From an uncultured Anaerolinea sp. (GTDB lineage Bacteria > Chloroflexota > Anaerolineae > Anaerolineales > Villigracilaceae), in assembly GCA_964372045.1 (NCBI GenBank), contig CAYJPO010000012.1:517-64516 (forward strand): 64,000 nt of DNA, read 5' to 3'. The position numbers were made by a program, and so were the translations under genes. Under the pieces are notes generated by a model that saw nothing but the letters and a program-made list of their open reading frames with translations, did no database searches and was not told where the DNA came from. Position 1 is the stretch's first letter. Every line of letters begins with the position of its first letter. Shown piece by piece: positions 10,670 through 39,406 of this stretch.

Positions 10670-10710
10670 ATCTTCTCCTATGTTTTCCTGCGGGTGGACC
10701 TCTGTGAAGC

Positions 10711-22500: not shown

Positions 22501-25500
22501 GGAGCAGGGCGTGACCGGAGTGCGGGTCGAGTTGTACCTGGATGCGAATACCAACGGCGTCTTCGACGGAGGCGACACGTTCCAATCGTTCGACACGACC
22601 GATGCGAACGGCTACTACCGCTTCGACAACCTGCCCGCAGGCGAATACGTGGTGGTCATCCCGACCACACAGTTCGGAACGGGCGGCGCATTGGACGGCT
22701 ATTGGAGCAGCGGCACGCAGATCTCGAACACCGGAACGGTGAGCGACAGTACCGCCAACGACGCGGACGCGGATCTGGACGACAGCGACGAGAACGGCAT
22801 CAGCACATTGACCGGCAACAGCTTGAACTATGTCTCTTCGGCAGCGGTCACGCTCGGACCGGGCAGCCTTGAACCGCTGAACGAACCGGATGCGCCGAAC
22901 GGACAGGGCGCAGTGGACGGACGCGGGAATATGACCGTGGACTTCGGGTTCTACCGTGTGGAAGTGGGCGACCTGGTGTTCGTGGACTCGAACGACGACG
23001 GCGATTACGACGCGGGCACCGACACCCCCTTGGCAGGCGCGTTGGTGCAGTTGTACGCTGGCGATGGAACGACCGAGATCATCACCGGCGCGGACGGCAT
23101 CCCTGGCACAGCCGATGACAGTTTTGGACCGGATGGCATCTCGGGCAATGCGGACGATAACACGGGCGGTGTCTTGACCCCAGCCAATGGCTTATATGAA
23201 TTCAGCGGGCTGCCCGCAGGCGACTATGTGGTGAAGGTCACCCCGCCGACGGGCTACGCCAGCACGCGCGACACGTCGGATGCGACCGACACGGGCAACC
23301 CGAACACGAACACGGACAACAACGACAACGGCGTTGGCACGGGACCGGGACAGGTCACGAGCAACGTGGTGACGCTGACCCCGGGCAGTACCGGAGCGCA
23401 GAACAACAACACAGTAAGCCAACCGACCGGCACGACCACCAATCCCACCGTGGACTTCGGGTTCACACCGCTCAACTATAGCCTGGGCAACCGGGTGTGG
23501 TACGACACGGACAACGACGGGCTGATCGACATCGGCACGGAGCAGGGCGTGACCGGAGTGCGGGTCGAGTTGTATCTGGATGCGAATACCAACGGCGTCT
23601 TCGACGGAGGCGACACGTTCCAATCGTTCGACACGACCGATGCGAACGGCTACTACCGCTTCGACAACCTGCCCGCAGGCGAATACGTGGTGGTCATCCC
23701 GACCACACAGTTCGGAACGGGCGGCGCATTGGACGGCTATTGGAGCAGCGGCACGCAGATCTCGAACACCGGAACGGTGAGCGACAGTACCGCCAACGAC
23801 GCGGACGCGGATCTGGACGACAGCGACGAGAACGGCATCAGCACATTGACCGGCAACAGCTTGAACTATGTCTCTTCGGCAGCGGTCACGCTCGGACCGG
23901 GCAGCCTTGAACCGCTGAACGAACCGGATGCGCCGAACGGACAGGGCGCAGTGGACGGACGCGGGAATATGACCGTGGACTTCGGGTTCTACCGTGTGGA
24001 AGTGGGCGACCTGGTGTTCGTGGACTCGAACGACGACGGCGATTACGACGCGGGCACCGACACCCCCTTGGCAGGCGCGTTGGTGCAGTTGTACGCTGGC
24101 GATGGAACGACCGAGATCATCACCGGCGCGGACGGCATCCCTGGCACAGCCGATGACAGTTTTGGACCGGATGGCATCTCGGGCAATGCGGACGATAACA
24201 CGGGCGGTGTCTTGACCCCAGCCAATGGCTTATATGAATTCAGCGGGCTGCCCGCAGGCGACTATGTGGTGAAGGTCACCCCGCCGACGGGCTACGCCAG
24301 CACGCGCGACACGTCGGATGCGACCGACACGGGCAACCCGAACACGAACACGGACAACAACGACAACGGCGTTGGCACGGGACCGGGACAGGTCACGAGC
24401 AACGTGGTGACGCTGACCCCGGGCAGTACCGGAGCGCAGAACAACAACACAGTAAGCCAACCGACCGGCACGACCACCAATCCCACCGTGGACTTCGGGT
24501 TTAGGACCAGCACCGGCTTGAGCAAGTCGATCATTGATACCTCTGAGACGTTCACGAGTGGTTATAACCTGGCGATCGGAGAGATCGTCACCTATGAAGT
24601 TGCTTTTGATCTGCCGGTGGGTGTCCCACTGAATAATGTTACGGTGACCGACCGCATGGACAGAGGTCTGGCATACGTCGATTGTTTGTTGGTGCAAGTT
24701 GCTGGAGTGAATCAGACCGGGACCGTTTGTCCGACGGCTGTGGTTTCATCGATCACCAACCCCGGCGATTCAGTATCCAATCCCGCCAACCCCGGCAGAC
24801 AGGTTCTATTCAACCTCGGGAATATTCCGGCTCAGGGCGGGGTGTCGGCGGTCATCATCCGCTATCGCGCCATCGTGCTGGATGTCATCGAGAATCAAGC
24901 TGGCGGAACGTTGAACAATGATGTCGTTTTTGCGTGGGACGCCGGTTCGTTCTCCACAAGTGCGCCGGATGTAACCATCGTTGAAGCGGAAATGAACATC
25001 GCAAAAACCGTAACACCTTCGACCAATGTTGCGATCGGTACGCCGGTTCAGTTCACGCTGACGATCGGGCACAGTGCCCAAAGCGGTACAGACGCATTTG
25101 ATGTTGTGGTCACGGATATCGTGCCGCCCAGCTTGCAATATATTCCCTGTACTATTCAATACAGTGGATTGGCTCCCACGACTCCGCCGGTGGGTTCTGC
25201 TTTTTGCCCTGGAGCGGCAACAGACCTGACCTTCGAGTGGGATGTGTTCCCGCGCGGTCAGACTGCCACCATTACCTTCAATGCCTATTTGTTGGTTTCT
25301 CCGGCGACGAATGTCGGCTCGGTGGCGTGGACTTCTCTGCCGATCAACCTGGATCAGAATGGGCTTCCGCAGCTGCTCTCGCTCCACAACGCCGAATCGA
25401 CCGAGCGTTGGTATGACCCAGGTGACCCGGTCAATGTGTACGGCATATCTGCCAGCGCGGCGATCAATGCGGTTCCAGGGGTCTCTGATGAGGAAGTTGA

Positions 25501-26053
25501 ATTGCCCGACGAACTTCCAGACACGGGCTTTGTTCCCGGGTCATCGATTTCCCTTCCCAGGAATCCCGAGGAAGCGGCATACAAACAGACCGGGGTATGG
25601 TTGGAGATCCCCAAACTTGGCGTGAACACTCCCATCGTCGGTGTGCCTTTATTAGATGATGACTGGGATGTTTCCTGGTTGGGGAATAGCACTGGCTGGC
25701 TGGAAGGTACTGCCTTCCCGTCCTGGCAGGGGAACAGTGTTGTGACCGGGCATGTGACCCTGCCCGCTGGGAATGATGGTCCGTTTGCGGCATTGGGCAC
25801 CCTTGGCTGGGGAGACCGGGTCATCGTCCATGCTTATGGAAGTGAGTACATTTATGAAGTGCGCCAGACCCGCACGGTCAGTCCGTTCAATACGACCGTC
25901 TTGCAGCATGAAGATGAAGCCTGGCTGACCTTACTCACGTGCAAGACTTACATCAAGTCAGCGGACACCTATCTCAGCCGCATCGCAGTCCGGGCTGTGC
26001 TGATCGATGTTCGGGAGGATGAAGCGCCGACTCCATCCGGCAGCATCCGTTAG
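19562..26053 (+). CDS. Giant secreted adhesin-like protein 1: signal peptide, proprotein-convertase P domain, SdrD-B domains, propeller-like region, DUF11/isopeptide domains, LPDTG, C-terminal sortase domain
   Basis: Hydrophobic N-terminus; DLNVGVNVAH..SD..VTLESP / GTWILRICD (P domain); about 6 GNRVW/GDLVF...DFGF SdrD-B repeats; LPDTG at 25514-25528; sortase His 25751, TLLTC Cys 25940, Arg 25979. Confidence 0.88.
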   Translation: MRFVSKIFSLLFIAVLLAGMVGIPNMIGRALSTSIDDIPGASIALADNSCAAPITRNIVVASSFIIADLNVGVNVAHDRRSDVRVTLESPSGTLVVLISGGGLGSPALASPDTYESYDVLLDDTSINSLYDNDADATIAPFYDRNARPFELLNTFKGEDAQGTWILRICDTLAGGAGGAIVEQYNRTQLNFTSADPNTISGTVFTDYNDNGLRGTGDLPVQGVTATAYDDTGAVVGTDVTDANGAYSLNIPDGTQVRIEFSTLPADLRPGAFGRDSGTTVQFVTSPAAGVDMGLVNPEEYCQNNPFLVMPCYINGDPLGGGSAGTLDVVVSIPNDAYGRTDATIERTLATGGQVGTTWGLAYQRSTHTVYAGALAKRHSGLGTLGSGGIYRIVVDPQTGLSTSVSSFIDITTLGIPVGSLPSNAARGLPAIANTPNTDPVWNEIGKAALGDLDIGADDDTLWLVNLADQSLYRLNDITAGPVTADGPYSVASALSGAGSVSPNACPAASDVRPWAVEVYKGEVYVGVVCTAETTQNVSDLRAYIIKTSEATPGTFTLAFEFALNYPRGVVSDTDGGYPAEWRPWSPTITSLCANPCATTNDLAFDGQIIYPQPILSDIEFDTSGDLILGLMDRTGHQTGNNNYATTVPWGTVTLYNKDTGYTPTVVNFAVDPAGLYEGAVAGDILRACLSGGVFVLENNATCGSITTGGNNSAPGQGPGNGEYYWQDMYPVTTDKDGGSHDEVTLGGLVLFPGTDEIAVSMYDPFAVRSGGISWFSNTTGVRTRAYEIFGVDSGGGSTTFGKAAGIGDIEGFCYGAPIEIGNRVWSDTNNNGIQEPSELPIAGVDVELLDSGGNVIATVTTDANGNYFFSSGPGTDSGNQEYLIPDLLPNSNYTVRIPNISGGSQQPALAGLSLSPNDTDADQRDSDATVSGTNAVIPITTGNPGENNHTYDFGFGNETYSLGNRVWYDTDNDGLIDIGTEQGVTGVRVELYLDANTNGVFDGGDTFQSFDTTDANGYYRFDNLPAGEYVVVIPTTQFGTGGALDGYWSSGTQISNTGTVSDSTANDADADLDDSDENGISTLTGNSLNYVSSAAVTLGPGSLEPLNEPDAPNGQGAVDGRGNMTVDFGFYRVEVGDLVFVDSNDDGDYDAGTDTPLAGALVQLYAGDGTTEIITGADGIPGTADDSFGPDGISGNADDNTGGVLTPANGLYEFSGLPAGDYVVKVTPPTGYASTRDTSDATDTGNPNTNTDNNDNGVGTGPGQVTSNVVTLTPGSTGAQNNNTVSQPTGTTTNPTVDFGFTPLNYSLGNRVWYDTDNDGLIDIGTEQGVTGVRVELYLDANTNGVFDGGDTFQSFDTTDANGYYRFDNLPAGEYVVVIPTTQFGTGGALDGYWSSGTQISNTGTVSDSTANDADADLDDSDENGISTLTGNSLNYVSSAAVTLGPGSLEPLNEPDAPNGQGAVDGRGNMTVDFGFYRVEVGDLVFVDSNDDGDYDAGTDTPLAGALVQLYAGDGTTEIITGADGIPGTADDSFGPDGISGNADDNTGGVLTPANGLYEFSGLPAGDYVVKVTPPTGYASTRDTSDATDTGNPNTNTDNNDNGVGTGPGQVTSNVVTLTPGSTGAQNNNTVSQPTGTTTNPTVDFGFRTSTGLSKSIIDTSETFTSGYNLAIGEIVTYEVAFDLPVGVPLNNVTVTDRMDRGLAYVDCLLVQVAGVNQTGTVCPTAVVSSITNPGDSVSNPANPGRQVLFNLGNIPAQGGVSAVIIRYRAIVLDVIENQAGGTLNNDVVFAWDAGSFSTSAPDVTIVEAEMNIAKTVTPSTNVAIGTPVQFTLTIGHSAQSGTDAFDVVVTDIVPPSLQYIPCTIQYSGLAPTTPPVGSAFCPGAATDLTFEWDVFPRGQTATITFNAYLLVSPATNVGSVAWTSLPINLDQNGLPQLLSLHNAESTERWYDPGDPVNVYGISASAAINAVPGVSDEEVELPDELPDTGFVPGSSISLPRNPEEAAYKQTGVWLEIPKLGVNTPIVGVPLLDDDWDVSWLGNSTGWLEGTAFPSWQGNSVVTGHVTLPAGNDGPFAALGTLGWGDRVIVHAYGSEYIYEVRQTRTVSPFNTTVLQHEDEAWLTLLTCKTYIKSADTYLSRIAVRAVLIDVREDEAPTPSGSIR
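22442..24501 (+). repeat. Near-perfect intragenic tandem duplication, period 1038 bp (346 aa, two SdrD-B domains)
   Basis: 22442-23463 versus 23480-24501; four synonymous differences seen in the first ~100 bp; alternate-frame ORFs in the track recur at +1038. Confidence 0.95.
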
Positions 26054-26087
26054 AGATTAGCAGATCCCTTTCATCTTTAACAAAATT

Positions 26088-26117
26088 AGGAGCGACCGAT
26101 CTCGGTCGCTCCTTTTG
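26088..26117 (+). terminator. Intrinsic terminator after adhesin 1
   Basis: 11-bp stem aggagcgaccg/cggtcgctcct followed by tttt. Confidence 0.9.
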
Positions 26118-26194
26118 ATTTCAAACAGGAAAGAAGCAGAATTTTTCGAGGCTGTGTAGACAATATTGCCTTTCATAACTGTGATTTTCATCTG

Positions 26195-26223
26195 TTGACC
26201 CTAGTACTAATTAGCTATAAAAT
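26195..26223 (+). promoter_or_regulatory. Sigma70 promoter of adhesin 2
   Basis: TTGACC(26195)-N17-TAAAAT(26218), about 20 nt upstream of the riboswitch aptamer. Confidence 0.7.
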
Positions 26224-26242
26224 ATATTAATAATCATCTTAA

Positions 26243-26336
26243 CTTACGGATGCACAGACCCAATGCGGGAATTGGTCGCATATCCAACTCAATTTGGATA
26301 CGCATTGGCGAGCAAAACAGCGAAACCGGCCGTAAG
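26243..26336 (+). ncRNA. c-di-GMP-II riboswitch aptamer
   Basis: P1 cttacgg/ccgtaag; kink-turn tgc-aca-GA / GA-gca; P3 ccaatgcg/cgcattgg; pseudoknot GG-TCGC (26274-26279) pairing GCGA-AA-CC (26320-26327), the same geometry as GG-GCAC/GUGC-AA-CC of known class II aptamers. Confidence 0.82.
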
Positions 26337-26455: not shown

Positions 26456-29400
26456 ATGAGGACTATCATGACTTCATTCTATTCATCACGTTCGCTCTCT
26501 CCGTATCACTTTTTTGTTACACTCCTATTCATTCTGACACAGGTGTTCGTATTTTCTCCGGCACAGGCATCGCCTGCGCCGGAACCGGTTGAACGACGAC
26601 CGTTATTTATGCCTGTGGCAGGAGTTGCCTTGGGAGTCCCAAGTGAAGTGTTCATCGGTCAGGAATTCACCTTTACAGCTTCGTTTTCCAACAATGCCAA
26701 TACTTCAGACGCTGATCCTGCCGACACCGGGTATGGTCCTTTCATTGACCTTGTCTTCCCGGTTACCGGCGTGGACGGCGACGATGGTATCGATTTTGTG
26801 AGTGCCAGTTATGGCGGTGCAGCGCTGCTTGGCTCACAGGTCTATGAAAACATTTTTCCGGATGACGATGGCATCGGACTCGGTACCACTGGATGTGTGC
26901 AACATCCCATTGCCGTTCTGGGCGCCAATGTGCCGCCTGTTCCGAGTGACGTGACACAGCCGCGCTACATGACGGTCTGTGGAACTGCGGGCGATAAACT
27001 GGTGACACTGGTCTTGCCCTTTGGTTCTTTCGTGCCGGGGCAACCCACCGCCGAAGTGACAGTTACCGCACAATTGAGTGACCTGGCGGATGTCAGCACT
27101 CCCTTGAACATCCAAGCGGCAGGTGGTTTCCAATATGGCGCGACCCCCACGAACGACTTTTGTTGTTCCCCGTTCGATGCGACCCTTTATAACGTTCCCA
27201 ACCCGGGCGATACTACCACCTGGCCCGGGAGTTCCGTTGAACCGATCATCATGACCCTTGCAAAGACATATGTCGGTCCAGAGAACGAAACCGCCACCGG
27301 ACCTAACTTCCCGCGCCAGTATCGGATCAGCGTGGATATTGCCGATGGGCAGACGGTAAGCAATTTGAACTTTGTGGATATCCTGCCGGATAATATTCAA
27401 TTCATCGGCATCGATTCGGTCACCGGCGGCAGTTATGCGGTCAACGGCAGTTTGCCATCCACATCCACCCCTGGCGGGACGCTTGACATCACCCTCGACA
27501 ATCCGGTCACGGGTACTTCGGGCAGTTCGGATGCGATTTTGTTATTTAGCTTCTACGTTGACCGGCTGGATGCAAGCAGTAACCCGGTTATAGACGCAAG
27601 CACGGGTGAACAAATCAACCCCACCAATAACAGCTCTTCTGCCAGCGGACCATGGGATCCGATCGATCCGCGTGATGATACCCTCCCTTTGCCGACCGCA
27701 TCAGGGGCATGTGCGCCCCCCTGTGTCGGCATTCAGGATGAATCCATTGCCGTGCAGAAAAGTGTGAGAAATATCACCGATGGCAGCAACAGCCCCGGTG
27801 ATGTTCTGGAATATACGCTTGAATTTCAGGTCTCGGATTTCTTTGGTTTTGAGGATGTCGTTCTGACCGATGTGATCTCGGATGGACAACGCTTCGACAC
27901 AGGATTCGCGCCCACGTTGGATTTTTCCGCCAACCCGGCTTCCAATGATTTCAGCGGCAACTTTGTACTGAATACCAATTACACAGTGGATAGTACAGAT
28001 ATAGGTAACACCGGTCCTGGTTGGCCTGCATCTGATGGAACAGACGGAACACAAACGATTACTTTCAATGTTTCAGGTTTGTTGGGAGAACAACTCCTGG
28101 GCGGGTGTGTGAATCCCACGGCAGCGAACAACCCGCCGGTCTGCACTGGAAGCGGTCCGTATGGAAATGACTCCACAGTCGGCACGATCCGCTTCCAAAC
28201 AATTATCCAGGATGAGTTCAGCGATGAATACCCATCCGGTGATGAATCTGTGGATCATGGCGATACCCTCGATAATAACGTGGATATTACCGGCACCGTG
28301 CTCGACCTGACGGATTACAGTCCGGTAACCGGTTTTGATACAGCCGCCGGTACGCCTGTGGACGACAGCGGCGCGGGTGTGACGATTGCCTTTGGCGGTT
28401 TGGTTAAATCCATTTACGCGGTTAATGGCAGCACCACCATTCCCGAGTATTTGACTCCAGGCGACGAGGTCACGTATTCCCTGACCTATACCCAGCCTGC
28501 CAGCGATTTTGAAGAGACTGTATTTACTGATTACCTGCCCCTGCCGGTCTATGATGCGAGTGAGATTACTGTGTTGAGTAATGCCGCCTGTGGTGGGACA
28601 TATCCGGCGGGCACGATCTGCCTTGGAAGTGGCGATACATTCCATACGACCTTCGCATCTGTCTGGGGGACGACCTACATCCCAACCCTGAGCGTTTCCC
28701 CCGCCGGAAACTCGTTCACGGTGACGTACCCAGAGTTTGACGACCTCAGCAATCGGAACACAATCATTGAATTAATGGTTACGGTCACGGTTCAGAATGA
28801 CCCCTTTGCTGACGGACTTTTCCTGACCAATCAGGCTGCCGCGCTAGAGGGCACCACCAATGCCGGCGATCAGAATGTTGATTCCATTATTCAGATCAGA
28901 TTAGGCGAGCCTGACCTGAGCACGTCGAAGACGGCGGTTTCCACCAGCCATACACCGGTGGCAGATGTTACCTTTGCGTCTGATGACCCGCTGGTCCCGG
29001 CTTCAAATTTGATCGTGGGACAATTTGCGTCGCCTGCCAACGCAGGTGTTCCATTCACGACCCCGCTTGGGTCGGACGATCTGAGCACCGATCCGGATGA
29101 TTTGACTCTTGCATTCAATCGTTTCAACAGCACCATGTTCGGCGTGGATGATCAAGATCTGGTCAAATATGCCATCCTGATCGAGAACCGCGGTCATAGC
29201 GCAAATGGCGGTTATGACATTGTCGTCTCGGATATTATGCCGCCGCAAATGGACTTTCCCGGCGGCGCTTCAGCCAACCTAAACCTCCAGCTTTATCGCG
29301 GCGATGGAGAACCATTGACATTTGCGGTCATCTATTTTGGCGGTGACGGCGAATACGGCGGCGGTGATGATATTGTCACGCCCGGCGATTCGACAAATGC

Positions 29401-32400
29401 TCACCTCATCTTCACATCCGGATACGCCATTCGTGTCAATGACCCGACTTCCGGCATTGATGCGGGCAAGGGTGCCTGTCAGGTGCATGAAGCCACCAGC
29501 GGCAGGAACGTCATCGTCATCACATATGACCTGCAAGTGGATGGCGACTACGACCCCAATACTATCATTGAGAATACGACCACGTTCCACAACTACGGTG
29601 GGACGGAGGGCGGACCCAATCACCTGCCCAAGCCTGAAGATGAGGATGCCAATATCGTTGTTGGAACACCATCCTTTGCACAAGGTGAAGGCAAGACCCT
29701 GCTCAGCACCGAATTGGACAGCGTGCTCACACCGGCAACTGTGACCGGCAATACCCGCACTCAGGCGGTGATCGGAGAACTCGCCACCTATGAGTTGGAG
29801 GTCAACCTGCATGAAGGCAGACTGCCCGCCGCGCAACTAGTGGACACGCTCGACGCCGGTCTTTCGTTTGTTCGGATCGATAGTGTTACTGTTTCTCCAG
29901 GTGTTACTGTACAAACGACTCCCGGCACTGGCACAATCCCCACAAATGTAACGATTGCCAGCGCCAATGGCGGGGTTGCCAATCAGTTGACCTACAATTT
30001 CGGGGATATCGTCAATGCCAATACCGATGACGCCGTGAACGAGACGATCACCATCGTCTATACAGCTGTGGTGAATAATGTTGGCACAAATCAGAGCGGT
30101 ACAGGTCTCAATAACAGTGCCCAATTGACTTGGGGTGGCGGTGGTTCCCTGCCTGCCATTACGTCCGAAGAAGTGATCGTCCTCGAACCTGTGATGACCA
30201 TTAACAAAGATACGGTTCCCTCCACCATTACCAGCCTGGATGCGGGCGATACCCTCGACTACAGAATTATCATCACAAACAGTGGCGCCACTGAAGCCTA
30301 CGATGTGACCTTCAGCGATCCGCTGCCGCAGTATTACGAATCTATTTCGATCACAGGTGTCAGCGGTACAGGCGGGGCGGCGCTCTCCGATTTTGAGATC
30401 GTCGGTTCGGGCACTTTCCCTGCTGATCCGTATATTCTCCAAACCACTGTCGCAGCCAACCTGGACTTGAATCCCGGCGAGACCATCATCGTCGATCTGC
30501 AAGGTACTCTTTCTAATTCCATTCCGCCAAGTTCAACATTGAGTAACACCGGCACCGTCATGTGGACGAGTTTGAATGGTAATGTTGTTGATCGTTCCAC
30601 GCACAACCCGGGAGAATCCGACGAACGCACGGGAACGAATCCGGTTGTGCAGCCCAATGATTACACAGCCAGCAGTTCTGTGGTGATCGATATCAGCAAT
30701 CCGCTGCTTCTGACCAAGTCCCTGATCGCTACATCTGAAAGCCACACGACCTTGAACGGCGGTACTGGTCTTGAAGATGTCGCCATCGGTGAGATCGTGC
30801 GCTATCGTCTGGCGGTGCGAATTCCAGAAGGCACCAGCCGCAACCTGCAATTCCAGGATCGTCTGCCCGCGGGCATGACCTTCCTCGATGATGGTACAGC
30901 ACGCCTATCCTTCGTCTCCGATGCCGCTGTTTTGGGAAGCGTCAGTTCAGCCGCATCTGGCGGCATTCCTGCCATTGTCTGCGCGAACGATGACGGTAGC
31001 TCTGCGGCAGCTGCCAGCATGACTTGTACCTTTGCAGACGATAATATATCCAATTCACTGGCGGGTTTTGACGATACATTCACATCCGGCAGAAACGTTT
31101 ACTTTAAGTTCGGTGATGTGACCAACAGCGAAAATGACCTGAACGACGAGTTCATCGTCGTGGAATTCAATGCCATCGTCGATAATGCAATTATCACCGG
31201 ACTGCCTTCCAGCCAGAACGATAATGGCGACACCCTGATCAATGATTTCGTTGCACACGAAAACGGTTCACCCTCACCTGTAGGTGTGAATTCGGACGAT
31301 ATCAACGTTACGGTACGCGAGCCGGTCATCAATAATGTGGATAAAGTGCTTACCGCGCCGATTCCCACCAGCTTTGACGCGGGCGATACCGTTTCCTTCA
31401 CCGTTGCCTTTTCAAATACCGGCTCGGTCGACGCCTTTGATGTGGTCTTGCGCGATACGCTTCATCCCGCCCTCGACCTGACCTCGGTTTCCGCTCCAAC
31501 GTATACATCCTGCTCCATCGTACCCACTGGGACGAATAACTCTGATACGGGTGCGGGCAATCTCGTTCAATACACCTTTGACCGGGTAGCTTCGAACTGC
31601 CAGATCAGCCTGACATACACTGCCAATATTTTGTATAGTGTTACCCCCGCTCAGGTTCTTACGAACACCGGCGTGGTGACCTATACCAGCCTTCCCGGAA
31701 CAAATGGCACCACCAGCAATCCCACTGGTTCCAGCGTCCCTGGCGCCAGCGGCACAGAGACTGGTGAACGCAATGGGACATACCCAACAATCATCGAGCC
31801 GAATGATTACATGCATTCGGACAATGCCCAGCTCACAATTGACAATGTTGTACCGACAAAATCCATTATCGCCACATCTGAAACTCATACCAGCGATGCA
31901 ACGGCAGATACAATTGTGGATCCGCGCCCCGTTGCTATTGGTGAGATCATGCGCTACCGCCTGGTGGTTCAAGTTCCCGAAGGCTCCAATACAGACTTGA
32001 CATTGACCGATCAGCTATCCACTGGCGTCACGTCTATTTTCGATACAACTACCGAGATCAGCACGTTGAACTTTGGGGCAGGCAATTTTGGCAGCCTCGA
32101 TTTCGGGGCTGCTTTGGAAGCCGCCAATGGGGTGACGGTTGACCTGTACAATGCGGGCGGGGCACCGCAATTTACCGCGCCGTTCAATTTAGTGACTCTC
32201 AACGGTTCGAACTTGCTGACCTTCAACCTTGGCGATATCGTCAACAACGACAACGATGCCAATGCGGAATACATCATCATCGATTTCAATGTCCTTGTGG
32301 ATAATGAGGGCGGTATTGATAATGGTGATGTCTTTGCGAATAATTTTGGTGTTTCAGTTAATTCGCGCCCCGTGGTTACCTCCAATACGGTTTATGCGCG

Positions 32401-35400
32401 GGTGAATGAACCGGCTATCACCAATCTCGACAAAACGGTCACGTCTGCGGGTCCGTATGATGCGGGCGATACGGTCAGCTATTCTGTGACATATACCAAT
32501 TCAGGCACATCCGACGCCTTTGAAGTGCAAGTCCTCGACGCCTTGAATTCGACCTACTTTACGATCAATACCGGCTCTGTCTCAGTGACTTCGGTTTGCG
32601 CAACCCTCCCGGCGACTGTGGTGACCTCGAGTAACACCGTCGATGTGACGGTCAGCCGTGTGCCGGTCGGTTGTGTGGTCACGATCACCTACTCGGCTGT
32701 CCTGACCACCTCGGTCAACCCAAGCACAAATTACCTCAACACTGCCAATATCACATACACCTCTCTGCCCGGCACGGGTACGACCGGCAACCCGACCGGT
32801 TCGAACACTCCCGGCGGGAGCGGCGCGGCGAATGGCGAACGTAATGGCGTAGGTGGTGTGAACGACCAAAACGATACCGATACCGCCCAGATCACCATCG
32901 CGGCGATCCAGCCGGAGAAGCGTATCATCGCAACCTCTGAGACGCACACCATCGACCCGGCGAATCCCACCAACATCCTCGTGGATGATATTTTAACAAA
33001 TCCGCGCCCGGTTGTGGTCGGCGAAGTGATGCGTTATCAGTTGGCGATGACTGTGCCCGAAGGCACCAGCACTGACTTTGTAATCTCCGACCAGCTTTCC
33101 ACTGGCGTCACACCGATCTTTGACGCGACCACTGAAATCCGCACGTTGAATTTCGGCGTACCATTCACGAGCGTTGATTTTGGCGCGCCATTGGCGGCAG
33201 CCAGCACCGGCACAGTTGACCTGTATAACGCTGGTGGGACTCCACAGTTCACCGCGCCGTTCAACCTGGTGACGCTCAACGGTTCGAACCTGCTGACCTT
33301 CAACCTCGGCGACATCGTCAACAACGACCTCAACGACGGCAACGCGGAATACATCATCGTCGAGTTCAATGTGCTGGTGGATAATGAAGCCGGTAACCAA
33401 AACCTGACCGTCTTCGACAACGACTTCACGGTTTCGATCAACGGTGCGACCAGCGGGACTTCCAACACGGTCTACCATCGCGTTGTCGAGCCGGTCCTTG
33501 CCACCACCAAGAACGATAACGACCCCGACGGCTGGGCGTACGGTCAGACCGTTACCTATACGGTTCAAGTTGCCCATGTCAGCGGCGATCCCACCCCAGC
33601 GGACAACAGCGCGGCAGATGCCTTCGATCTCGTCGTCACAGACACCATCCCTGCCGGGTTGACGTACGTGACCAATACAATGACCGCCCCTGCCGGTTGG
33701 ACGTTGGATCAATCCGCTGCTCCCATCCTGATCTGGCGCTGTACTTCACCCGTCTGTGCCATGACCTTGGCGGGCGGAGCTGTCAACCTGACTTATCAAG
33801 TGGTTGTCAATGATGTGACAGTCACCCCGCATATTGACGGAAACACAACCGTGACCAACACCGCCGTCACTACCTGGACTTCCCAGCCCGGCGCGGGCAC
33901 GACCGGCAATTCCACCGGCTCGAATACCCCTGGCGTCAGCGGCGCGACGGACGGTGAGCGCAATGGTTCAGGTGGTGTGAACGACTACACAGTGACCGTC
34001 AACCACACTGATGGTCTGGCTCCTTACTATGCGCTCGGCAATCGCGTCTGGTTCGATACGGACAACAGCGCCGACATCAATGGCGCGGAAGTAGGCGTTG
34101 GCGGCGTCCAAGTCCGCTTATATGAATCCGACGGCGTTACTCCCGTCTATGAACCGAATAGCGTCATTCCGCGTGTGACCACCACCAACGCCACCGGGTA
34201 TTACCTGTTCGATTATCTCGAACCGCGTGACTACATCGTGGTCATTCCAGCGGCAAACTTTGACAACACAGGTGTTGGCGATACCACCACCGCTTTAGTG
34301 GGTTATTGGTCTTCTCAAACATCCAGAGACGCCGCCGGAGCCATCATCGAAACTGCCGCGCCTGGTCCCAATAACGATACCGACTCGGACGATAACGGCA
34401 CTCGACAGGCAAGCGGCGATGTCGTCTCGCTTCCGATCACCATCGGTCCGGGCGAACCGACCGGGGAAGTTGCCCCAGGCGGACAGGGTGCCCAGCCCGA
34501 TGACCGCGCCAACATGACCGTGGACTTCGGCTTCTACAAGGTCGCCATTGGCAATCTTGTCTATGAAGACATCAATGCCAACGGAACCTATGACAACGGA
34601 ATCGACACCCCGCTCAATAACGTGCCTGTCGAGTTATTGTCCTCAACCGGTGTGCTCATCGAGTCGACGAGTACGAACGGAAGCGGGCTTTACTCCTTCG
34701 TGAACCACCCTGACGGCGATTACATCGTGCGCGTCACCACCCCGACGGGTATGGTCAGCACCATTGATACGTTTGCCGCCACCGATAACGCCAACCCGGA
34801 TAACGAACCCACCGGTGAAGTGGATGACAACGACAACGGCATCGGCATTGGCGCGGATACGCTCATCAATGTGTCCTCCGGCGTCCTGACTATGGACTCG
34901 GGTGAAAGCGGCAGTACTCCCGCCGTCATCACGGTGGATGACAACACCGGTACGACCACCGACACCGGGCTGGACTTCGGCTTTGTCTACCCGTACGCGC
35001 TCGGCAATCGCGTCTGGTTCGATACGGACAACAGCGCCGATATCAACGGCGTGGAAGTCGGCGTGGATGGTGTGCTCGTCACGCTCTATCACGCTGATGC
35101 ACTTGGCGTTGCCACCACACCGGTCACGGTCGGTGGCTTGCCTGTCAGCGATACGACTACGAACGGCGGCTATTACCTCTTTGACTATCTCAACCCAGGC
35201 AACTATGTTGTAGTTCTTCCGGCATCCAACTTTGCTGTTGGCGCTGTTCTCGAAGGCTACTGGTCATCGCAGACGTTTCGCAATGACACCACCGGAGCCA
35301 TCACCGAAACCCCCGCGCCCAATCCCGACCTCGGAGTCGATGGCGCAGTCGGCGGCGGCGATGACGATGAAGACTCGGATGACAACGGCACGCTCCAAAC

Positions 35401-38400
35401 CGGCGGCACGTTCAACGGAGCCGTGATCGCTCAGTCGGCCACACTCGGACCGAGCGGCAATACCGAGCCGACGAATGACAACGACCTTGAGACTGGCGTC
35501 AACCACGGCGATCAGCCCGATGGACGCTCGAACCTGAGCGTGGACTTCGGCTTCTACAAGGTCAGCGTGGGTAACCTTGTCTGGGCAGATGCCGACAAAG
35601 ATGGCGTCTATGATGCTGGCGAGCCGCTCTTCCAAAATGCGACAGTCTATCTCTATGCCGCGAATCCTACTACGAATGCAGTCATCGGCGCGGCGCTTGC
35701 TTCCACGACAACAGACATCAACGGCGTCTATAACTTCGATACCCTGCCCGAAGGCAATTACATTGTCGCTGTGGATGCGCCGGTTGGTACATTCAGCACC
35801 ATCGACTCGGCGGATACGATCACCCCGAACACCAATACCGATGATGCGGATAACGGCATCGGCGAGACTGGCGGAACGGTGTACTCGAACGCGGTCTTCC
35901 TCGAAGCAGGCAATGCCGGGATCAACAACGTTGTGGATGACGGCGCAGGTCCGCTGACGATCGACTTCGGCGCGACCTACAATCCCACCATGGACTTTGG
36001 CTTCACGCCGGTCTACTCGCTTGGCAACCGCGTCTGGTTCGATACCAACAACAACCGCATCATCGATAACTTCGAAGTTGGGGTGGATGATGTAGCCGTT
36101 CTACTTTACGATATTTCCGGCAATCAGATCCTTATTGGCGCGGACGGTATCCTTGGAAGTGCCGACGATGGCACGACCAACCCGGTGCTCACCGACAACG
36201 GCGGCTATTACCTCTTCAACGGACTTGAAGCGGGCGATTATGTGGTTGTCATTGCTGCGTCCAATTTTGTCAGCGGCGGTGAACTCGAAGGCTATTGGTC
36301 TTCTGAAACCCGCCGCGATACAACTACGGGTCTGGTCACCGAACCTCTGGCGCACTCGCCTGAAACGAGTCAGGACTCGGACGATAACGGCACGCTCCAG
36401 ACCAGCGGCGCATTCAACAATGCAGTTATTGCGCAGACAGTCACGCTGGGTCCAACCTTCAATGAACCTCAAAACGAAGGCAGCGTCGCTGGGGCACTCG
36501 ATGCAACCCTGCCCGGCAATCAGCAAGGTCAACCCGACGCGCAGGCGAACATGACCGTGGACTTCGGTTTCTACACCATCACCCTCGGTGACCTGGTCTG
36601 GATCGACACTGATAACAGCGGCACCGTCACAGGTGCAGAGGCTGGTATCGACGGCGTGACCGTTCATCTTTACCCGGTGAATGGTATTGGTGCGCCAGTC
36701 GGCTCACCTGTCATTGCCACCACTGCTGGCGGCGGACTCTATTCCTTCACCGGTCTGCCGCAGGGCAACTACATTGTCCACCTGCCCGATACTAACTTCA
36801 TGGGGGCGGCTGCCCTCCGCGATTACTATTCCAGCACCGGCGCGGGCAATCTCTACGAAGTACCGGCTGCTCCCAACCCCGATATTGTCACCGTCGATTC
36901 GGATGACAATGGCACGGAAGTCGGCACTCTCGGCTTCACTGGCGGTTATATCCAAAGCGGCATCTTTGCGCTCACGCCGACTTTTGAAGGTTCGTATGAC
37001 AATACCATCGGAACAACCAACGAACCGCGCGTAGACTTTGGTGTATATCGCAGTCCGCAGGTTAATCTCTCCATTGTCAAGACCGAAACGCCTGACAAGG
37101 GCTATTACCTGCAAGGTGAAACGACCACCTACTCCATCCTGGTCACCAACCACGGTCCGGCAGACGTGATCAACGCGGTCATTGACGACGCCATACCGCT
37201 CGATGGTTCCTCCAACCCGATGTTCACCGAATGGGACTGGGTATGCACTACCACTGGCGGCGCGACCTGCAATCCGCAGCTCAATTTGACCGGCGACTTT
37301 ATCGACACGGTCGATATGCCCTACGGCTCGACCATCACCTACACGGTCTCAGTGACCGTAGCCGGCACTGCCACGGGCACATTGGTCAACACTGCCACTG
37401 TCACAGCTCCTGCGAGCGTCACGGAAGGCAACCTGACGGATAATAGTTTCAGCGATACGAACAACCCCGCATCCATCACCATCACGAAGACAGATGGCTT
37501 GACCGTTGTTGCGCCGAACTCACCGCTGACATATACCATCACGGTCACAAACAATGGCGCGGTTGACCTTACCAGCCTCACAGTCACAGATACCCTGCCG
37601 GGTGAGGTGATCTTCCAAAGCGCGAATCCTGTACCCGCGACTGCCCCGGCTCCCAACACGCCGGGTGGAACGCTCACCTGGACGGGACTCAGCCTGCTCT
37701 CTGGCGCATCGACGGACATCTCGGTCACGGTTCTGGTCATCCCGACGGCGATCGGACCGAACCTCCTCAACTCTGTCACCGTCACCGATGCGAACACGAA
37801 TGCCACCGCCTCAGCGACAGATTCAGATGTCGTCGCCTGGGATAAGACCAAGGTTTTGGCTGGGACGAGCGAAGCCTTCACACCTGAGACGATCACACCG
37901 CCTTCTACACTTCGTCCGGTCGCCATTGGTGAGGTCCTTACTTACCAGATCAGCGTGGAAGTGCCTGCGAACTCGACCCTAACCAATCTCCGGGCGTTGG
38001 ATATCATGGATGCAGGCTTGGCATTCGTGCGCTGTGTCAGCATTGCGCCAGATGCGAATCTCACAACTGACCTGACGGGTGGGTTTGCGGCGGCTTGTAA
38101 TGCTCCATTTAGCCTGCTTGTCGGTCCAATCCCGAATCCGGTTATCTCGCGTGAACCGGTGGGTGATCCCAGCACGTACAATGACGGACGCCGGGTTGAT
38201 TTCAACCTCGGTAATGTCACCAACACGGATCTGGCGAACGTCCAAACCCTCACCATCACCTACGAAGCCATCGTGCTTGATATTCCGTCCAATGTGCAGG
38301 GCACCCCGGGTCTTGATAACGGGGTGACATGGTCGTGGCTGGGAGGCTCGCTTTCTGCTTCTGCCAACGCGGTCGAGATCAAAGAGCCTAAATTGAGCAT

Positions 38401-39406
38401 CTCCAAGACCGCCGACCCGCTCATTGCTGCGATCGGTTCGACAATTACGTTCACGGTGTCGATCGCACATACCCCTGATAGCGCTTTGGATGCCTTCGAC
38501 GTGGTCGTCACAGATGACCTACCCGAAGGGCTCACGTTGATCCCCGGCACGATCAGCTTTACCGGTCTGCCTGCGGATATCACCGACTTTGATACTGCAA
38601 CCGGCGTGCTCACATTCACCTGGCACACCTTCCCGTTGAGTGCGTCCAGCGTTATCACCTTCCAGACGACCTTCGTTGGACCGGCCCCGGTGACGAACGC
38701 CGCCAACGTTGCGTGGACAAGCCTGCCCATCGACCCGCAACCGCAACCGAGCGGTCCGCCGGTGTTACTTTCCACCTTCAATGACTTTGCCACCGAGCGT
38801 TGGTATGACCCGACAGACCTTACCGGTGTGAACGATTACGGTGTGAGTGCTTCCGTTGTCGTGAATGCACCGTCCGGCGGGAAGTGGCTGCCAAAGACCG
38901 GTTTTGCGCCGGATGTCATCACCGAACTCCCGCCCATGCCTGCGGACTTTGCCTACGCCCAAACCGACGTCTGGATCGAGATTCCAAAGCTCGATCAGAA
39001 ACTGACGTTGGTGGGTGTGCCGTTCAACAACGAGACCGGCGAGTGGGATCTGCGCTGGCTTGGAAGTGAAGCCGGCTGGCTGGAGTACACTGCCTTCCCG
39101 ACGTACTCCGGTAATTCTGCCATCACTGCCCACGCCACCCTGCCTACCGGCGAGGATGGTCCCTTCGCGCAACTGGACAGCCTCAGTTATGGCGACCAGA
39201 TCATTGTCCATATCAACGGTCAGCGCTACATTTATGAAGTGCGCGCGAAGCTCCAGGTACTGCCTGAGGCAGTCCGCTCCGTCCTCAAGCATGAAGAAAT
39301 TTCGTGGCTGACCCTCATCACGTGTAAATCCTATAACGAGAGGACAGGCGAGTACAAATATCGCAGTGTTGTGCGCGCCGTGTTGCTCACGGTTGAGGAT
39401 GAGTAA
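26456..39406 (+). CDS. Giant secreted adhesin-like protein 2 (4316 aa): signal peptide, many DUF11/isopeptide pilin-D2-like domains, 3 SdrD-B pairs, LPKTG, C-terminal sortase domain
   Basis: Signal ending in AQA; repeated xKS/xKT...IGE..xY...D.LP.G domains; YALGNRVWFDT at 34028, 34994 and 36014; LPKTG 38888-38902; sortase His 39131, TLITC Cys 39323, Arg 39362. Confidence 0.9.
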   Translation: MRTIMTSFYSSRSLSPYHFFVTLLFILTQVFVFSPAQASPAPEPVERRPLFMPVAGVALGVPSEVFIGQEFTFTASFSNNANTSDADPADTGYGPFIDLVFPVTGVDGDDGIDFVSASYGGAALLGSQVYENIFPDDDGIGLGTTGCVQHPIAVLGANVPPVPSDVTQPRYMTVCGTAGDKLVTLVLPFGSFVPGQPTAEVTVTAQLSDLADVSTPLNIQAAGGFQYGATPTNDFCCSPFDATLYNVPNPGDTTTWPGSSVEPIIMTLAKTYVGPENETATGPNFPRQYRISVDIADGQTVSNLNFVDILPDNIQFIGIDSVTGGSYAVNGSLPSTSTPGGTLDITLDNPVTGTSGSSDAILLFSFYVDRLDASSNPVIDASTGEQINPTNNSSSASGPWDPIDPRDDTLPLPTASGACAPPCVGIQDESIAVQKSVRNITDGSNSPGDVLEYTLEFQVSDFFGFEDVVLTDVISDGQRFDTGFAPTLDFSANPASNDFSGNFVLNTNYTVDSTDIGNTGPGWPASDGTDGTQTITFNVSGLLGEQLLGGCVNPTAANNPPVCTGSGPYGNDSTVGTIRFQTIIQDEFSDEYPSGDESVDHGDTLDNNVDITGTVLDLTDYSPVTGFDTAAGTPVDDSGAGVTIAFGGLVKSIYAVNGSTTIPEYLTPGDEVTYSLTYTQPASDFEETVFTDYLPLPVYDASEITVLSNAACGGTYPAGTICLGSGDTFHTTFASVWGTTYIPTLSVSPAGNSFTVTYPEFDDLSNRNTIIELMVTVTVQNDPFADGLFLTNQAAALEGTTNAGDQNVDSIIQIRLGEPDLSTSKTAVSTSHTPVADVTFASDDPLVPASNLIVGQFASPANAGVPFTTPLGSDDLSTDPDDLTLAFNRFNSTMFGVDDQDLVKYAILIENRGHSANGGYDIVVSDIMPPQMDFPGGASANLNLQLYRGDGEPLTFAVIYFGGDGEYGGGDDIVTPGDSTNAHLIFTSGYAIRVNDPTSGIDAGKGACQVHEATSGRNVIVITYDLQVDGDYDPNTIIENTTTFHNYGGTEGGPNHLPKPEDEDANIVVGTPSFAQGEGKTLLSTELDSVLTPATVTGNTRTQAVIGELATYELEVNLHEGRLPAAQLVDTLDAGLSFVRIDSVTVSPGVTVQTTPGTGTIPTNVTIASANGGVANQLTYNFGDIVNANTDDAVNETITIVYTAVVNNVGTNQSGTGLNNSAQLTWGGGGSLPAITSEEVIVLEPVMTINKDTVPSTITSLDAGDTLDYRIIITNSGATEAYDVTFSDPLPQYYESISITGVSGTGGAALSDFEIVGSGTFPADPYILQTTVAANLDLNPGETIIVDLQGTLSNSIPPSSTLSNTGTVMWTSLNGNVVDRSTHNPGESDERTGTNPVVQPNDYTASSSVVIDISNPLLLTKSLIATSESHTTLNGGTGLEDVAIGEIVRYRLAVRIPEGTSRNLQFQDRLPAGMTFLDDGTARLSFVSDAAVLGSVSSAASGGIPAIVCANDDGSSAAAASMTCTFADDNISNSLAGFDDTFTSGRNVYFKFGDVTNSENDLNDEFIVVEFNAIVDNAIITGLPSSQNDNGDTLINDFVAHENGSPSPVGVNSDDINVTVREPVINNVDKVLTAPIPTSFDAGDTVSFTVAFSNTGSVDAFDVVLRDTLHPALDLTSVSAPTYTSCSIVPTGTNNSDTGAGNLVQYTFDRVASNCQISLTYTANILYSVTPAQVLTNTGVVTYTSLPGTNGTTSNPTGSSVPGASGTETGERNGTYPTIIEPNDYMHSDNAQLTIDNVVPTKSIIATSETHTSDATADTIVDPRPVAIGEIMRYRLVVQVPEGSNTDLTLTDQLSTGVTSIFDTTTEISTLNFGAGNFGSLDFGAALEAANGVTVDLYNAGGAPQFTAPFNLVTLNGSNLLTFNLGDIVNNDNDANAEYIIIDFNVLVDNEGGIDNGDVFANNFGVSVNSRPVVTSNTVYARVNEPAITNLDKTVTSAGPYDAGDTVSYSVTYTNSGTSDAFEVQVLDALNSTYFTINTGSVSVTSVCATLPATVVTSSNTVDVTVSRVPVGCVVTITYSAVLTTSVNPSTNYLNTANITYTSLPGTGTTGNPTGSNTPGGSGAANGERNGVGGVNDQNDTDTAQITIAAIQPEKRIIATSETHTIDPANPTNILVDDILTNPRPVVVGEVMRYQLAMTVPEGTSTDFVISDQLSTGVTPIFDATTEIRTLNFGVPFTSVDFGAPLAAASTGTVDLYNAGGTPQFTAPFNLVTLNGSNLLTFNLGDIVNNDLNDGNAEYIIVEFNVLVDNEAGNQNLTVFDNDFTVSINGATSGTSNTVYHRVVEPVLATTKNDNDPDGWAYGQTVTYTVQVAHVSGDPTPADNSAADAFDLVVTDTIPAGLTYVTNTMTAPAGWTLDQSAAPILIWRCTSPVCAMTLAGGAVNLTYQVVVNDVTVTPHIDGNTTVTNTAVTTWTSQPGAGTTGNSTGSNTPGVSGATDGERNGSGGVNDYTVTVNHTDGLAPYYALGNRVWFDTDNSADINGAEVGVGGVQVRLYESDGVTPVYEPNSVIPRVTTTNATGYYLFDYLEPRDYIVVIPAANFDNTGVGDTTTALVGYWSSQTSRDAAGAIIETAAPGPNNDTDSDDNGTRQASGDVVSLPITIGPGEPTGEVAPGGQGAQPDDRANMTVDFGFYKVAIGNLVYEDINANGTYDNGIDTPLNNVPVELLSSTGVLIESTSTNGSGLYSFVNHPDGDYIVRVTTPTGMVSTIDTFAATDNANPDNEPTGEVDDNDNGIGIGADTLINVSSGVLTMDSGESGSTPAVITVDDNTGTTTDTGLDFGFVYPYALGNRVWFDTDNSADINGVEVGVDGVLVTLYHADALGVATTPVTVGGLPVSDTTTNGGYYLFDYLNPGNYVVVLPASNFAVGAVLEGYWSSQTFRNDTTGAITETPAPNPDLGVDGAVGGGDDDEDSDDNGTLQTGGTFNGAVIAQSATLGPSGNTEPTNDNDLETGVNHGDQPDGRSNLSVDFGFYKVSVGNLVWADADKDGVYDAGEPLFQNATVYLYAANPTTNAVIGAALASTTTDINGVYNFDTLPEGNYIVAVDAPVGTFSTIDSADTITPNTNTDDADNGIGETGGTVYSNAVFLEAGNAGINNVVDDGAGPLTIDFGATYNPTMDFGFTPVYSLGNRVWFDTNNNRIIDNFEVGVDDVAVLLYDISGNQILIGADGILGSADDGTTNPVLTDNGGYYLFNGLEAGDYVVVIAASNFVSGGELEGYWSSETRRDTTTGLVTEPLAHSPETSQDSDDNGTLQTSGAFNNAVIAQTVTLGPTFNEPQNEGSVAGALDATLPGNQQGQPDAQANMTVDFGFYTITLGDLVWIDTDNSGTVTGAEAGIDGVTVHLYPVNGIGAPVGSPVIATTAGGGLYSFTGLPQGNYIVHLPDTNFMGAAALRDYYSSTGAGNLYEVPAAPNPDIVTVDSDDNGTEVGTLGFTGGYIQSGIFALTPTFEGSYDNTIGTTNEPRVDFGVYRSPQVNLSIVKTETPDKGYYLQGETTTYSILVTNHGPADVINAVIDDAIPLDGSSNPMFTEWDWVCTTTGGATCNPQLNLTGDFIDTVDMPYGSTITYTVSVTVAGTATGTLVNTATVTAPASVTEGNLTDNSFSDTNNPASITITKTDGLTVVAPNSPLTYTITVTNNGAVDLTSLTVTDTLPGEVIFQSANPVPATAPAPNTPGGTLTWTGLSLLSGASTDISVTVLVIPTAIGPNLLNSVTVTDANTNATASATDSDVVAWDKTKVLAGTSEAFTPETITPPSTLRPVAIGEVLTYQISVEVPANSTLTNLRALDIMDAGLAFVRCVSIAPDANLTTDLTGGFAAACNAPFSLLVGPIPNPVISREPVGDPSTYNDGRRVDFNLGNVTNTDLANVQTLTITYEAIVLDIPSNVQGTPGLDNGVTWSWLGGSLSASANAVEIKEPKLSISKTADPLIAAIGSTITFTVSIAHTPDSALDAFDVVVTDDLPEGLTLIPGTISFTGLPADITDFDTATGVLTFTWHTFPLSASSVITFQTTFVGPAPVTNAANVAWTSLPIDPQPQPSGPPVLLSTFNDFATERWYDPTDLTGVNDYGVSASVVVNAPSGGKWLPKTGFAPDVITELPPMPADFAYAQTDVWIEIPKLDQKLTLVGVPFNNETGEWDLRWLGSEAGWLEYTAFPTYSGNSAITAHATLPTGEDGPFAQLDSLSYGDQIIVHINGQRYIYEVRAKLQVLPEAVRSVLKHEEISWLTLITCKSYNERTGEYKYRSVVRAVLLTVEDE

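Follow-up and report, generated by a model that had tools for sequence, protein, structure and literature searches.

The window analysed here, a stretch of 64,000 nucleotides (nt) from an uncultured Anaerolinea sp. (contig CAYJPO010000012.1, positions 517 to 64,516), contains two adjacent open reading frames (ORFs), ORF1 and ORF2, which encode large proteins ending in an LPxTG motif, a conserved linker and a sortase domain on the same chain. Sequence comparison indicates that this unit of LPxTG, linker and sortase, with ~170 amino acids (aa), is the universal module of a large family, and that the C-terminal cassette of 510 aa shared by the two proteins is too broad a definition of it. ORF1 and ORF2 are interpreted as Sec-secreted, fibrillar, adhesin-like surface proteins in which a self-processing sortase would cleave its own LPxTG between Thr and Gly and transfer the passenger to an amine of the envelope; we give this interpretation about an even chance of being correct.

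Distribution and conservation of the fused sortase module

A profile of the module (184 aa) was run against 1.84 billion representatives, and 1601 clusters, counted at 50% identity, were retrieved at E<=1e-30. The module formed the extreme C-terminus in 149 of the 150 best matches, whose host proteins ranged from 239 to 5482 aa. In 139 of 145 independent representatives at 50% identity, a [LIMV]Px[TS]G motif was located 141-147 residues ahead of the catalytic Cys, while the remaining six had xPxTG or lacked the TLxTC pattern. Alignment of 107 tails revealed that the catalytic His and the Cys of TLxTC were present in all sequences and the Arg in 106. Within the motif, Pro was kept in 105 sequences, Thr in 104 (Ser in 3) and Gly in 107, with L, I or M at the first position and a free x. 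The linker that follows has the consensus F-A-P-G-x-V-T-x-L-P-x-Q-P-x-x-x-A-Y, in which the initial F, A and P were kept in 104, 84 and 96 of the 107 sequences, respectively. LPxTG lies 168-175 residues from the C-terminus, with the polar conserved linker and an enzyme of 150 aa downstream of it; no hydrophobic 19-mer was detected downstream of LPxTG in the 139 representatives, and none was visible in ORF1 or ORF2.

With the tail of ORF2 as query, 106 clusters (90% identity) were retrieved, most of them from metagenome-assembled genomes (MAGs) of Anaerolineales. The whole tail was present in ~60 of them, and in ~40 only its last third was found, with other domains upstream. The cassette is not confined to the pair in the window, a possibility raised in an earlier note on this DNA. 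ORF1 ranked 39th in this search, with 38 clusters nearer to ORF2, and thus indicating that the copies in the window are old paralogues and not the outcome of a local duplication. Relatives were also encoded at 514 loci of species-representative genomes (one genome per species), which were scanned with a 6-sequence alignment; the analyses at the level of loci cover the best 79 of these 514, which belong almost entirely to Anaerolineae/Anaerolineales.

The adjacency of ORF1 and ORF2, together with a near-perfect internal duplication in ORF1 that denotes active local duplication, would fit a simpler explanation, namely that gene calling or assembly fused a substrate gene to a sortase gene, or that the pair arose by local paralogous duplication. 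This explanation was given almost no credence, since the tails are only 43% identical, the clusters nearer to ORF2 come from foreign genomes, and the in-frame fusion devoid of a transmembrane segment recurs throughout the 1601 clusters and 514 loci. In addition, the window sequence was found at 99-100% identity in sediment metagenome contigs, by which both fusion junctions were covered independently. An artefact or a recent duplication was ruled out on these three grounds. Relatives were also present in activated sludge, and one RNA run from activated sludge yielded short fragments of relatives, 90-95% identical, a weak signal that was not used as evidence.

Some members depart from the usual arrangement. 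Protein P0107 (1048 aa) has two motif-plus-sortase modules in series (688-859 and 877-1047), the second one with LPKMG. At locus L061 (9965-10510), the sortase module is separated from the passenger by an in-frame stop 12 codons ahead of LPATG; the assembly of this locus is Nanopore-based, which makes a frameshift error or a pseudogene the likely cause. At locus L031 (~4576-5097), a sortase ORF of 157 aa was called alone, with no upstream passenger attached. Loci L046 (contig CALOCI010000015.1, 477 kb) and L006 come from MAGs labelled Thermodesulfobacteriota and Acidithiobacillus, which reflects either mis-binning or a rare occurrence outside Chloroflexota.

Fold and class of the sortase domain

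The domains of ORF1 and ORF2 exceeded the cutoffs of Sortase PF04203 (26.6 bits; scores in Table 1) and of TIGR01076 (49.8 and 45.9 bits, respectively; cutoff 39.35). An AlphaFold2 (AF2) model of the module alone, based on a 50-sequence alignment, had a mean pLDDT (per-residue confidence) of 94 and a pTM (confidence in the overall fold) of 0.89 and showed the eight-stranded beta-barrel of sortases, and Foldseek matched it with a probability of 1.0 to ~50 solved sortases of classes A, C, D and E (TM-scores of 0.57-0.76), singling out no one class. On the basis of the threshold, the fold and the catalytic triad, the domain is assigned to the sortase superfamily (Pfam PF04203, MEROPS C60), and LPxTG transpeptidation is predicted for it. 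Judged by its scores, it fits none of the curated sortase classes: the NCBIfam cutoffs (in brackets) were not reached by ORF1 and ORF2 for class C (48.5 and 49.1 bits; 160), class F (45.1 and 29.6; 166), class D (45.0 and 34.2; 165), class E (39.7 and 43.3; 160) or class GN (30; 158).

The closest solved proteins by sequence were class C sortases (E 4e-17). The TG-FAP segment aligned with the lid (DPF) region of the class C enzyme 24rr, ~25 residues ahead of beta1, in a weak part of a single hidden Markov model (HMM) alignment. The DP[FWY] lid motif itself was absent from the modules of ORF1 and ORF2. In the module-only model, LPKTG and the linker of ORF2 had pLDDT values of 93-95 with a beta-bridge at Gly, which suggests that LPKTG is an ordered and docked segment.

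Since LPxTG-FAP lines up with the pseudo-substrate lid of class C sequences, it could itself be an autoinhibitory lid that is never cleaved, in which case the sortase would stay attached and act on other substrates, or would switch on only when it meets a target. The conservation of the residues after Gly (FAP..VT.LP.QP), unusual for a mere leaving group, agrees with such a role. It was considered quite unlikely, because the segment retains a cleavable consensus (P, T and G at least 97%, x free) next to an intact triad instead of a mimic of the DP[FWY] type, and because the ~1.4 Mb of sequence flanking the loci contained no separate substrates with canonical signals. Tethered sortase-LPXTG constructs, moreover, cleave themselves (PMC2901362), and a lid leaves unexplained why dozens of unrelated passengers need an enzyme of their own.

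Passenger diversity and the D2+DUF11 stalk unit

The 126 full-length members with a signal peptide fell into 33 unrelated N-terminal clusters, and no shared N-terminal acceptor domain was found among them. At the best 79 loci, the ORFs ranged from a few hundred to >3500 aa, and their passengers comprised FG-GAP repeats, beta-helix/PMP-like repeats, propellers, ice-binding-like domains and DUF11 arrays. Upstream of the module in the ~40 clusters that share only the last third of the ORF2 tail, Big_1, Big_5, Big_12, Ice_binding, BNR, DUF285 and other domains were identified. Pfam analysis of 22 complete small members revealed Ice_binding in five, as well as DUF5122, FG-GAP, Beta_helix, Vgb_lyase and others. 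These comparisons of sequence indicate that the idea of interchangeable passengers, put forward in the earlier note, is right. The modular display platform described there holds in so far as diverse passengers are carried on a sortase end, but the conserved platform consists of LPxTG, linker and sortase and not of the whole cassette.

The C-terminal tails of ORF1 and ORF2 are collinear over ~515 aa (43% identity, 534 columns, E 8e-116, BLASTP), and both are ordered as an RrgB-D2-like isopeptide domain, a DUF11/CLIPPER domain, LPxTG, the conserved 25-residue linker and the sortase. This arrangement agrees with that reported earlier from inspection of the sequence, being recovered by BLASTP and profile matches with all of the quoted motifs in both genes. 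FNLGN, DAFDVVVTD, AWTSLPI and TERWYDP are identical in the two tails, and the remaining motifs form the pairs AIGEIVTY/AIGEVLTY, DRGLAYVDC/DAGLAFVRC, YGISAS/YGVSAS and LPDTG/LPKTG (ORF1/ORF2). The similarity begins at nt ~24521 in ORF1 and ~37847 in ORF2, within 2-3 codons of the limits first proposed. Scores of both tails exceeded the cutoffs of TIGR04226 (RrgB_K2N_iso_D2; 30 bits) and of DUF11 PF01345 (24.6 bits) (Table 1).

The two stalk domains are missing from part of the other sortase fusions: the D2+DUF11 unit adjoins LPxTG in 47 of 116 sufficiently long representatives (~40%), and DUF11 occurs in one of the 22 complete small members. The unit is an optional stalk unit that lies outside the catalytic device. 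In 38 aligned cassettes, the D2-like domain has an isopeptide-type triad of K5, E32 and N152 or N161 (K5 in 32 of 32, E32 nearly invariant, N152 and N161 invariant), and in DUF11 K190, D226 and N287 are invariant in the 38 sequences, from which a bond is predicted. The spacing of the DUF11 triad in ORF2 (36 and 61 residues) is close to that of the Lys/Asp/Asn triad in the CLIPPER crystal structure 9IFR (33 and 58 residues; PMC12617251). Structure comparison showed a resemblance of the stalk part to the isopeptide-bonded C-terminal domains of wall-anchored AgI/II adhesins and of PrgB. The terminal D2-like domain also carries a Cys pair (C66/C87 in ORF2, C57/C72 in ORF1), the first Cys being invariant and the second nearly so, which probably forms a disulfide.

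The TERWYDP motif just upstream of LPxTG had been proposed as a docking element for the sortase. The internal D2+DUF11 units of ORF2, which share 27-30% identity with the terminal one, lie far from any sortase, and the last three of them have [WY]TS[LQ]P followed after 25-27 residues by GERNG, with the same spacing as in AWTSLPI...TERWYDP. By its sequence, TERWYDP is the form that the terminal unit has of an ER motif found at the end of each unit ([WY]TS[LQ]P - 25-27 residues - ER[NW][GY]). ERWYDP is strictly conserved in terminal units only, the internal ones carrying ERNG. In the AF2 model of the whole cassette (mean pLDDT 89.9, pTM 0.65), an extra strand (335-343) after ERWYDP closes the unit and is followed by a hinge with pLDDT <50 (347-352) that runs into LPKTG. 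Since this strand and the low-confidence hinge intervene, and since ERWYDP is absent from sortase modules without DUF11, docking of the motif onto the sortase is unsupported and this role was dropped.

Proposed mechanism

Export would proceed via the N-terminal signal peptide, which was observed in both proteins, and would be followed by folding of the C-terminal sortase barrel, in which His, Cys and Arg are intact and a membrane anchor is lacking. The 25-residue linker may keep LPxTG inside the substrate groove or close to it, where class C sortases have their pseudo-substrate lid, and on the module-only model LPxTG would be placed in the active site. The Cys would then attack the Thr-Gly bond of its own chain, forming a passenger-LPxT-S-Cys(sortase) intermediate in which the sortase polypeptide is a tethered leaving group. 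Resolution of this thioester by an envelope amine would fix the passenger covalently and release the sortase of ~170 aa. The acceptor would most likely be lipid II or a stem peptide of peptidoglycan, with a Lys on some other surface protein as a further possibility. However unrelated the passengers are, each is coupled to one enzyme; a single-use sortase travelling with its substrate would account for each passenger, of any fold, having a copy to itself.

Several points weigh against this interpretation. We infer the cleavage, the thioester and the acceptor alike. Conventional sortases and their substrates may be present elsewhere in these genomes, beyond the ~1.4 Mb of flanks that were scanned. 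Transfer to lipid II by an enzyme without a membrane anchor is hard to favour over hydrolysis or diffusive loss, and the tethered Gly leaving group could re-ligate. The correspondence with the class C lid falls, as mentioned above, in the weak part of one alignment. In the whole-cassette model, which was built on a shallower alignment, the residues with pLDDT <50 include the L and P of LPKTG, values of 74-78 were obtained for the 20 residues after the hinge, and no beta-bridge was formed; because the two AF2 models differ at LPKTG, its docking is model-dependent.

The lack of a membrane anchor that would keep the enzyme beside lipid II bears also on another outcome, in which the sortase merely hydrolyses its own LPxTG between Thr and Gly and frees the mature passenger into matrix or medium without any transpeptidation. 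In the enzymology of SrtA, the acyl intermediate is slowly hydrolysed if a nucleophile is absent, which would allow such a release. We consider it very unlikely, given that keeping a complete transpeptidase, catalytic residues included, is costly for one cut, that the passengers are fibrillar with a stalk and a head and have wall-anchored adhesins (AgI/II C-domains, PrgB) as solved relatives, and that an isopeptide-type stalk beside the motif suggests a load-bearing attachment.

Self-processing followed by ligation can be extended to the whole family as a natural "auto-sortase", that is, a lineage-wide, membrane-free and single-turnover ligase of Anaerolineae that would cleave in cis, hold the passenger as a thioester while the Gly leaving group stays tethered and then ligate it to the envelope or to a partner, and that would represent a distinct, unnamed sortase class. 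We advance this proposal tentatively and place its probability slightly below one half.

Tandem genes and possible polymerisation

Fused genes in tandem pairs or triplets were found in the window and at L011, L015, L030, L048, L052, L054 and L059. In L011, L015, L048 and L059, one member of the tandem has IPVTGF in place of LPxTGF, a replacement also present in L028 and L044, and L077 has IPVTGL. The IPVTGF variant is often located in the second gene of the tandem and resembles pilin-specific motif variants; ORF1 and ORF2 are both of the LPxTG type.

These tandems, with IPVTGF often in the second gene, are among the observations that fit a sortase acting in trans, which would cut the LPxTG of a neighbour, whether a second copy of the protein or its tandem partner, and link it to a Lys on a different subunit, resulting in covalent fibres in which ORF1 and ORF2 co-assemble. 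The presence of pilin-type RrgB-D2-like domains and the fact that the nearest solved sequences are pilus-polymerising class C sortases point in the same direction. On the other hand, the class C score of 49 bits is far from the NCBIfam cutoff of 160, the N-terminal clusters are unrelated and share no acceptor domain, and many members occur as single genes whose passengers are not pilins. A pilin motif of the YPK(N) type was not detected either, as no [YF]PK occurs in ORF1 or ORF2 according to a regular-expression search, which a divergent acceptor could escape. The conserved linker of fixed length and the high pLDDT of the module model suggest an intramolecular arrangement instead, and polymerisation in trans was judged unlikely.

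Comparison with known systems

Sortases are usually membrane-anchored enzymes with multiple turnovers, whose separate substrates are held in the membrane by a C-terminal helix. The class C enzymes (Streptococcus pneumoniae SrtC-1, 2w1j; group B Streptococcus SrtC1/C2; Enterococcus faecalis Ebp SrtC, 24rr) share with the fused module the beta-barrel and the His/Cys/Arg triad. They also have an N-terminal pre-barrel segment over the active site, and in the present family a real LPxTG appears, from the sequence, at about the same distance ahead of beta1. They differ in being separate membrane proteins that have a C-terminal transmembrane helix and act in many turnovers on separate pilin substrates; the fused family, in contrast, has no transmembrane helix, carries a true LPxTG in the apparent position of the lid, and has the enzyme as the C-terminal end of the presumed substrate. 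Anchoring by an N- or C-terminal transmembrane segment is usual for sortases and not strictly defining. In class C, the lid coincides with the LPAT peptide of the SrtA complex and is taken to be a pseudo-substrate (PMC3493515).

With the canonical LPXTG sorting signal of class A/E housekeeping sortases, the family shares the pentapeptide with a free x, its place in a stalk-plus-head surface protein with a signal peptide, and Ig-like domains of the isopeptide type beside the anchor, as in AgI/II adhesins. The canonical signal has a hydrophobic segment and a positive tail within ~35-50 residues of the C-terminus, whereas the family has neither of them, and its motif, ~170 residues from the end, is followed by conserved residues after Gly and then by an enzyme. 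Surveys of adhesins scan the last 50 residues for sortase motifs (PMC12617251, PMC9210967) and therefore miss these proteins. The stalks resemble those of DUF11/CLIPPER and RrgB-D2-type fibrillar adhesins in their above-threshold matches, in the triad spacing near that of 9IFR and in their tandem repeats; the terminal unit is a variant of its own (ERWYDP, Cys pair) with a fixed place directly before the LPxTG-sortase.

Engineered fusions of SrtA, LPXTG and a target (Mao method, BISOP) likewise carry enzyme and motif on one chain and are cut at the motif, and such fusions process themselves (PMC2901362). They are man-made, with the enzyme at the N-terminus and the target as leaving group, and serve release and not attachment; in the natural order of passenger, LPxTG and enzyme, the passenger would be the acyl donor. 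Hedgehog Hint domains, inteins, autotransporter beta-domains and the C-terminal domains of the type IX secretion system (T9SS) are alike in working principle only, a conserved C-terminal module that is lost on maturation setting the fate or anchoring of a variable passenger, and are unrelated in fold and chemistry. In Hedgehog proteins and inteins, autoprocessing joins the N-terminal partner to a small molecule and involves a thioester intermediate. The analogy to autotransporters and T9SS drawn in the earlier note is retained for this functional logic and does not extend to domains, since Pfam detected no autotransporter, T9SS or Hint domain in the two proteins or their tails, and the sortase was the only domain found at the C-terminus.

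Architecture of ORF1 and ORF2

The positions of the features of both genes are given in Table 1. The signal peptide of ORF1 probably starts at Met18 (MRFVSKIFSLLFIAVLLAGMVG...), and the head of the protein contains a proprotein-convertase P-domain. The signal peptide of ORF2 ends at …FVFSPAQA/SPAP. After it come the head of ~1080 aa and the four internal D2+DUF11 units, then the SdrD_B stalk and a pair of DUF11/DUF7507 domains, and finally the cassette. The parts upstream of the cassette had been described as different in the two proteins, which is correct for the heads only (ORF1 1-807, ORF2 1-2524), as these are unrelated. The SdrD_B-type stalks are homologous, ORF1 aa 808-1668 (SdrD_B/SpaA-type) matching ORF2 aa 2525-3586 with 36-41% identity (E ~1e-98).

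Within the ORF1 stalk, a unit of the SdrD_B/SpaA type of 1035 nt (345 aa) is present as a near-perfect tandem copy (22436-23470 and 23474-24508), with ~5 substitutions away from the repeat ends and 7 more at the two boundaries; it stops 6 nt upstream of the cassette. In the short-read contigs of one run, the two copies were merged at ~2x depth (33.7 vs ~14), and for this reason the stalk duplication looks real and recent.

Table 1. Features of the fused-sortase genes ORF1 and ORF2 in the window (nt positions; scores in bits; residues in tail numbering unless given as aa of the protein).
Feature	Position	Strand	Description
ORF1	19511..26053	+	2180 aa; signal peptide, head with P-domain, SdrD_B/SpaA stalk (aa ~808-1668), C-terminal cassette
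ORF1 RrgB-D2-like isopeptide domain	24515..24982	+	TIGR04226 40.8 bits; E23, C57/C72, N127/N135
ORF1 DUF11/CLIPPER	24983..25471	+	PF01345 30.2 bits; K164/D201/N266, AWTSLPI...TERWYDP loop, closing strand NVYGISASAAINA
ORF1 acidic hinge	25472-25513	+	precedes LPDTG
ORF1 LPDTG	25514..25528	+	followed by conserved linker GFVPGSSISLPRNPEEAAY
ORF1 linker and sortase	25529..26050	+	PF04203 78.3 bits; no transmembrane segment
ORF1 catalytic codons	His 25751-25753, Cys (LTLLTC) 25940-25942, Arg 25979-25981	+	H413/C476/R489
ORF2	26456..39406	+	4316 aa; signal peptide, head ~1080 aa, stalk, C-terminal cassette
ORF2 internal D2+DUF11 units (n=4)	29693..34015	+	aa ~1080-1412, 1420-1790, 1801-2150, 2155-2520
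ORF2 terminal RrgB-D2-like isopeptide domain	37838..38383	+	TIGR04226 41.5 bits; K5, E32, C66/C87, N152/N161
ORF2 terminal DUF11/CLIPPER	38384..38869	+	PF01345 56.5 bits; K190/D226/N287, AWTSLPI...TERWYDP loop, closing strand DYGVSASVVVNA
ER of ORF2 TERWYDP	38795-38800	+	
ORF2 hinge PSGGKW	38870..38887	+	between stalk unit and LPxTG; pLDDT <50 at residues 347-352 (whole-cassette model)
ORF2 LPKTG	38888..38902	+	predicted scissile T/G site
ORF2 linker (FAPDVITELPPMPADFAY) and sortase beta-barrel	38903..39403	+	PF04203 75.4 bits; AF2 mean pLDDT 94; Foldseek match to sortases
ORF2 catalytic codons	His 39131-39133, Cys (LTLITC) 39323-39325, Arg 39362-39364	+	H432/C496/R509

Genomic context

The neighbourhood of the two genes is ordinary chromosome, with a kinase, a peptidase M3, PAP2 and glycosyltransferases. 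An all-against-all comparison of 1670 ORFs from the 79 loci and the window revealed no conserved accessory gene and, beyond synteny of housekeeping genes, only a TIR gene that recurs downstream. The ~1.4 Mb of flanks contained 89 sortase ORFs, all of the fused type, and the search there for canonical sorting signals or stand-alone sortases returned only spurious minus-strand ORFs.

In the window, a gene with TIR_2 only (39692-40279, plus strand) lies directly downstream of ORF2. Homologous TIR genes were found at 11 of the 79 loci, and at L002, the only locus checked, the gene (10592-11188) comes directly after the fused-sortase gene; its position beside the fused sortase could reflect plain synteny or a functional link. 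An NYN and OST-HTH/LOTUS gene (40329-41186, minus strand) adjoins the TIR gene. Further away (4361-6844, minus strand), the window encodes a cell-wall-active enzyme of 827 aa with a GH25 lysozyme, four SH3_3 and an NAGPA phosphodiester glycosidase domain.

Significance of the fused sortases

Neither natural fusions of a substrate with a sortase nor sortases from Chloroflexota were found described in the searchable literature, including a sortase review and a polymorphic-toxin survey, which is not proof of absence, and in databases these proteins are labelled simply as "sortase". If the proposal is true, the auto-sortase would be the sortase counterpart of Hedgehog and intein autoprocessing, and its compact module of ~170 aa would serve as a ready-made, self-ligating tag for protein engineering. 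A large family with the enzyme behind its own motif, and with neither partner anchored, would be a different route to covalent surface display, and is relevant to surface construction and attachment to flocs in the filamentous Anaerolineae that abound in sludge and sediment.

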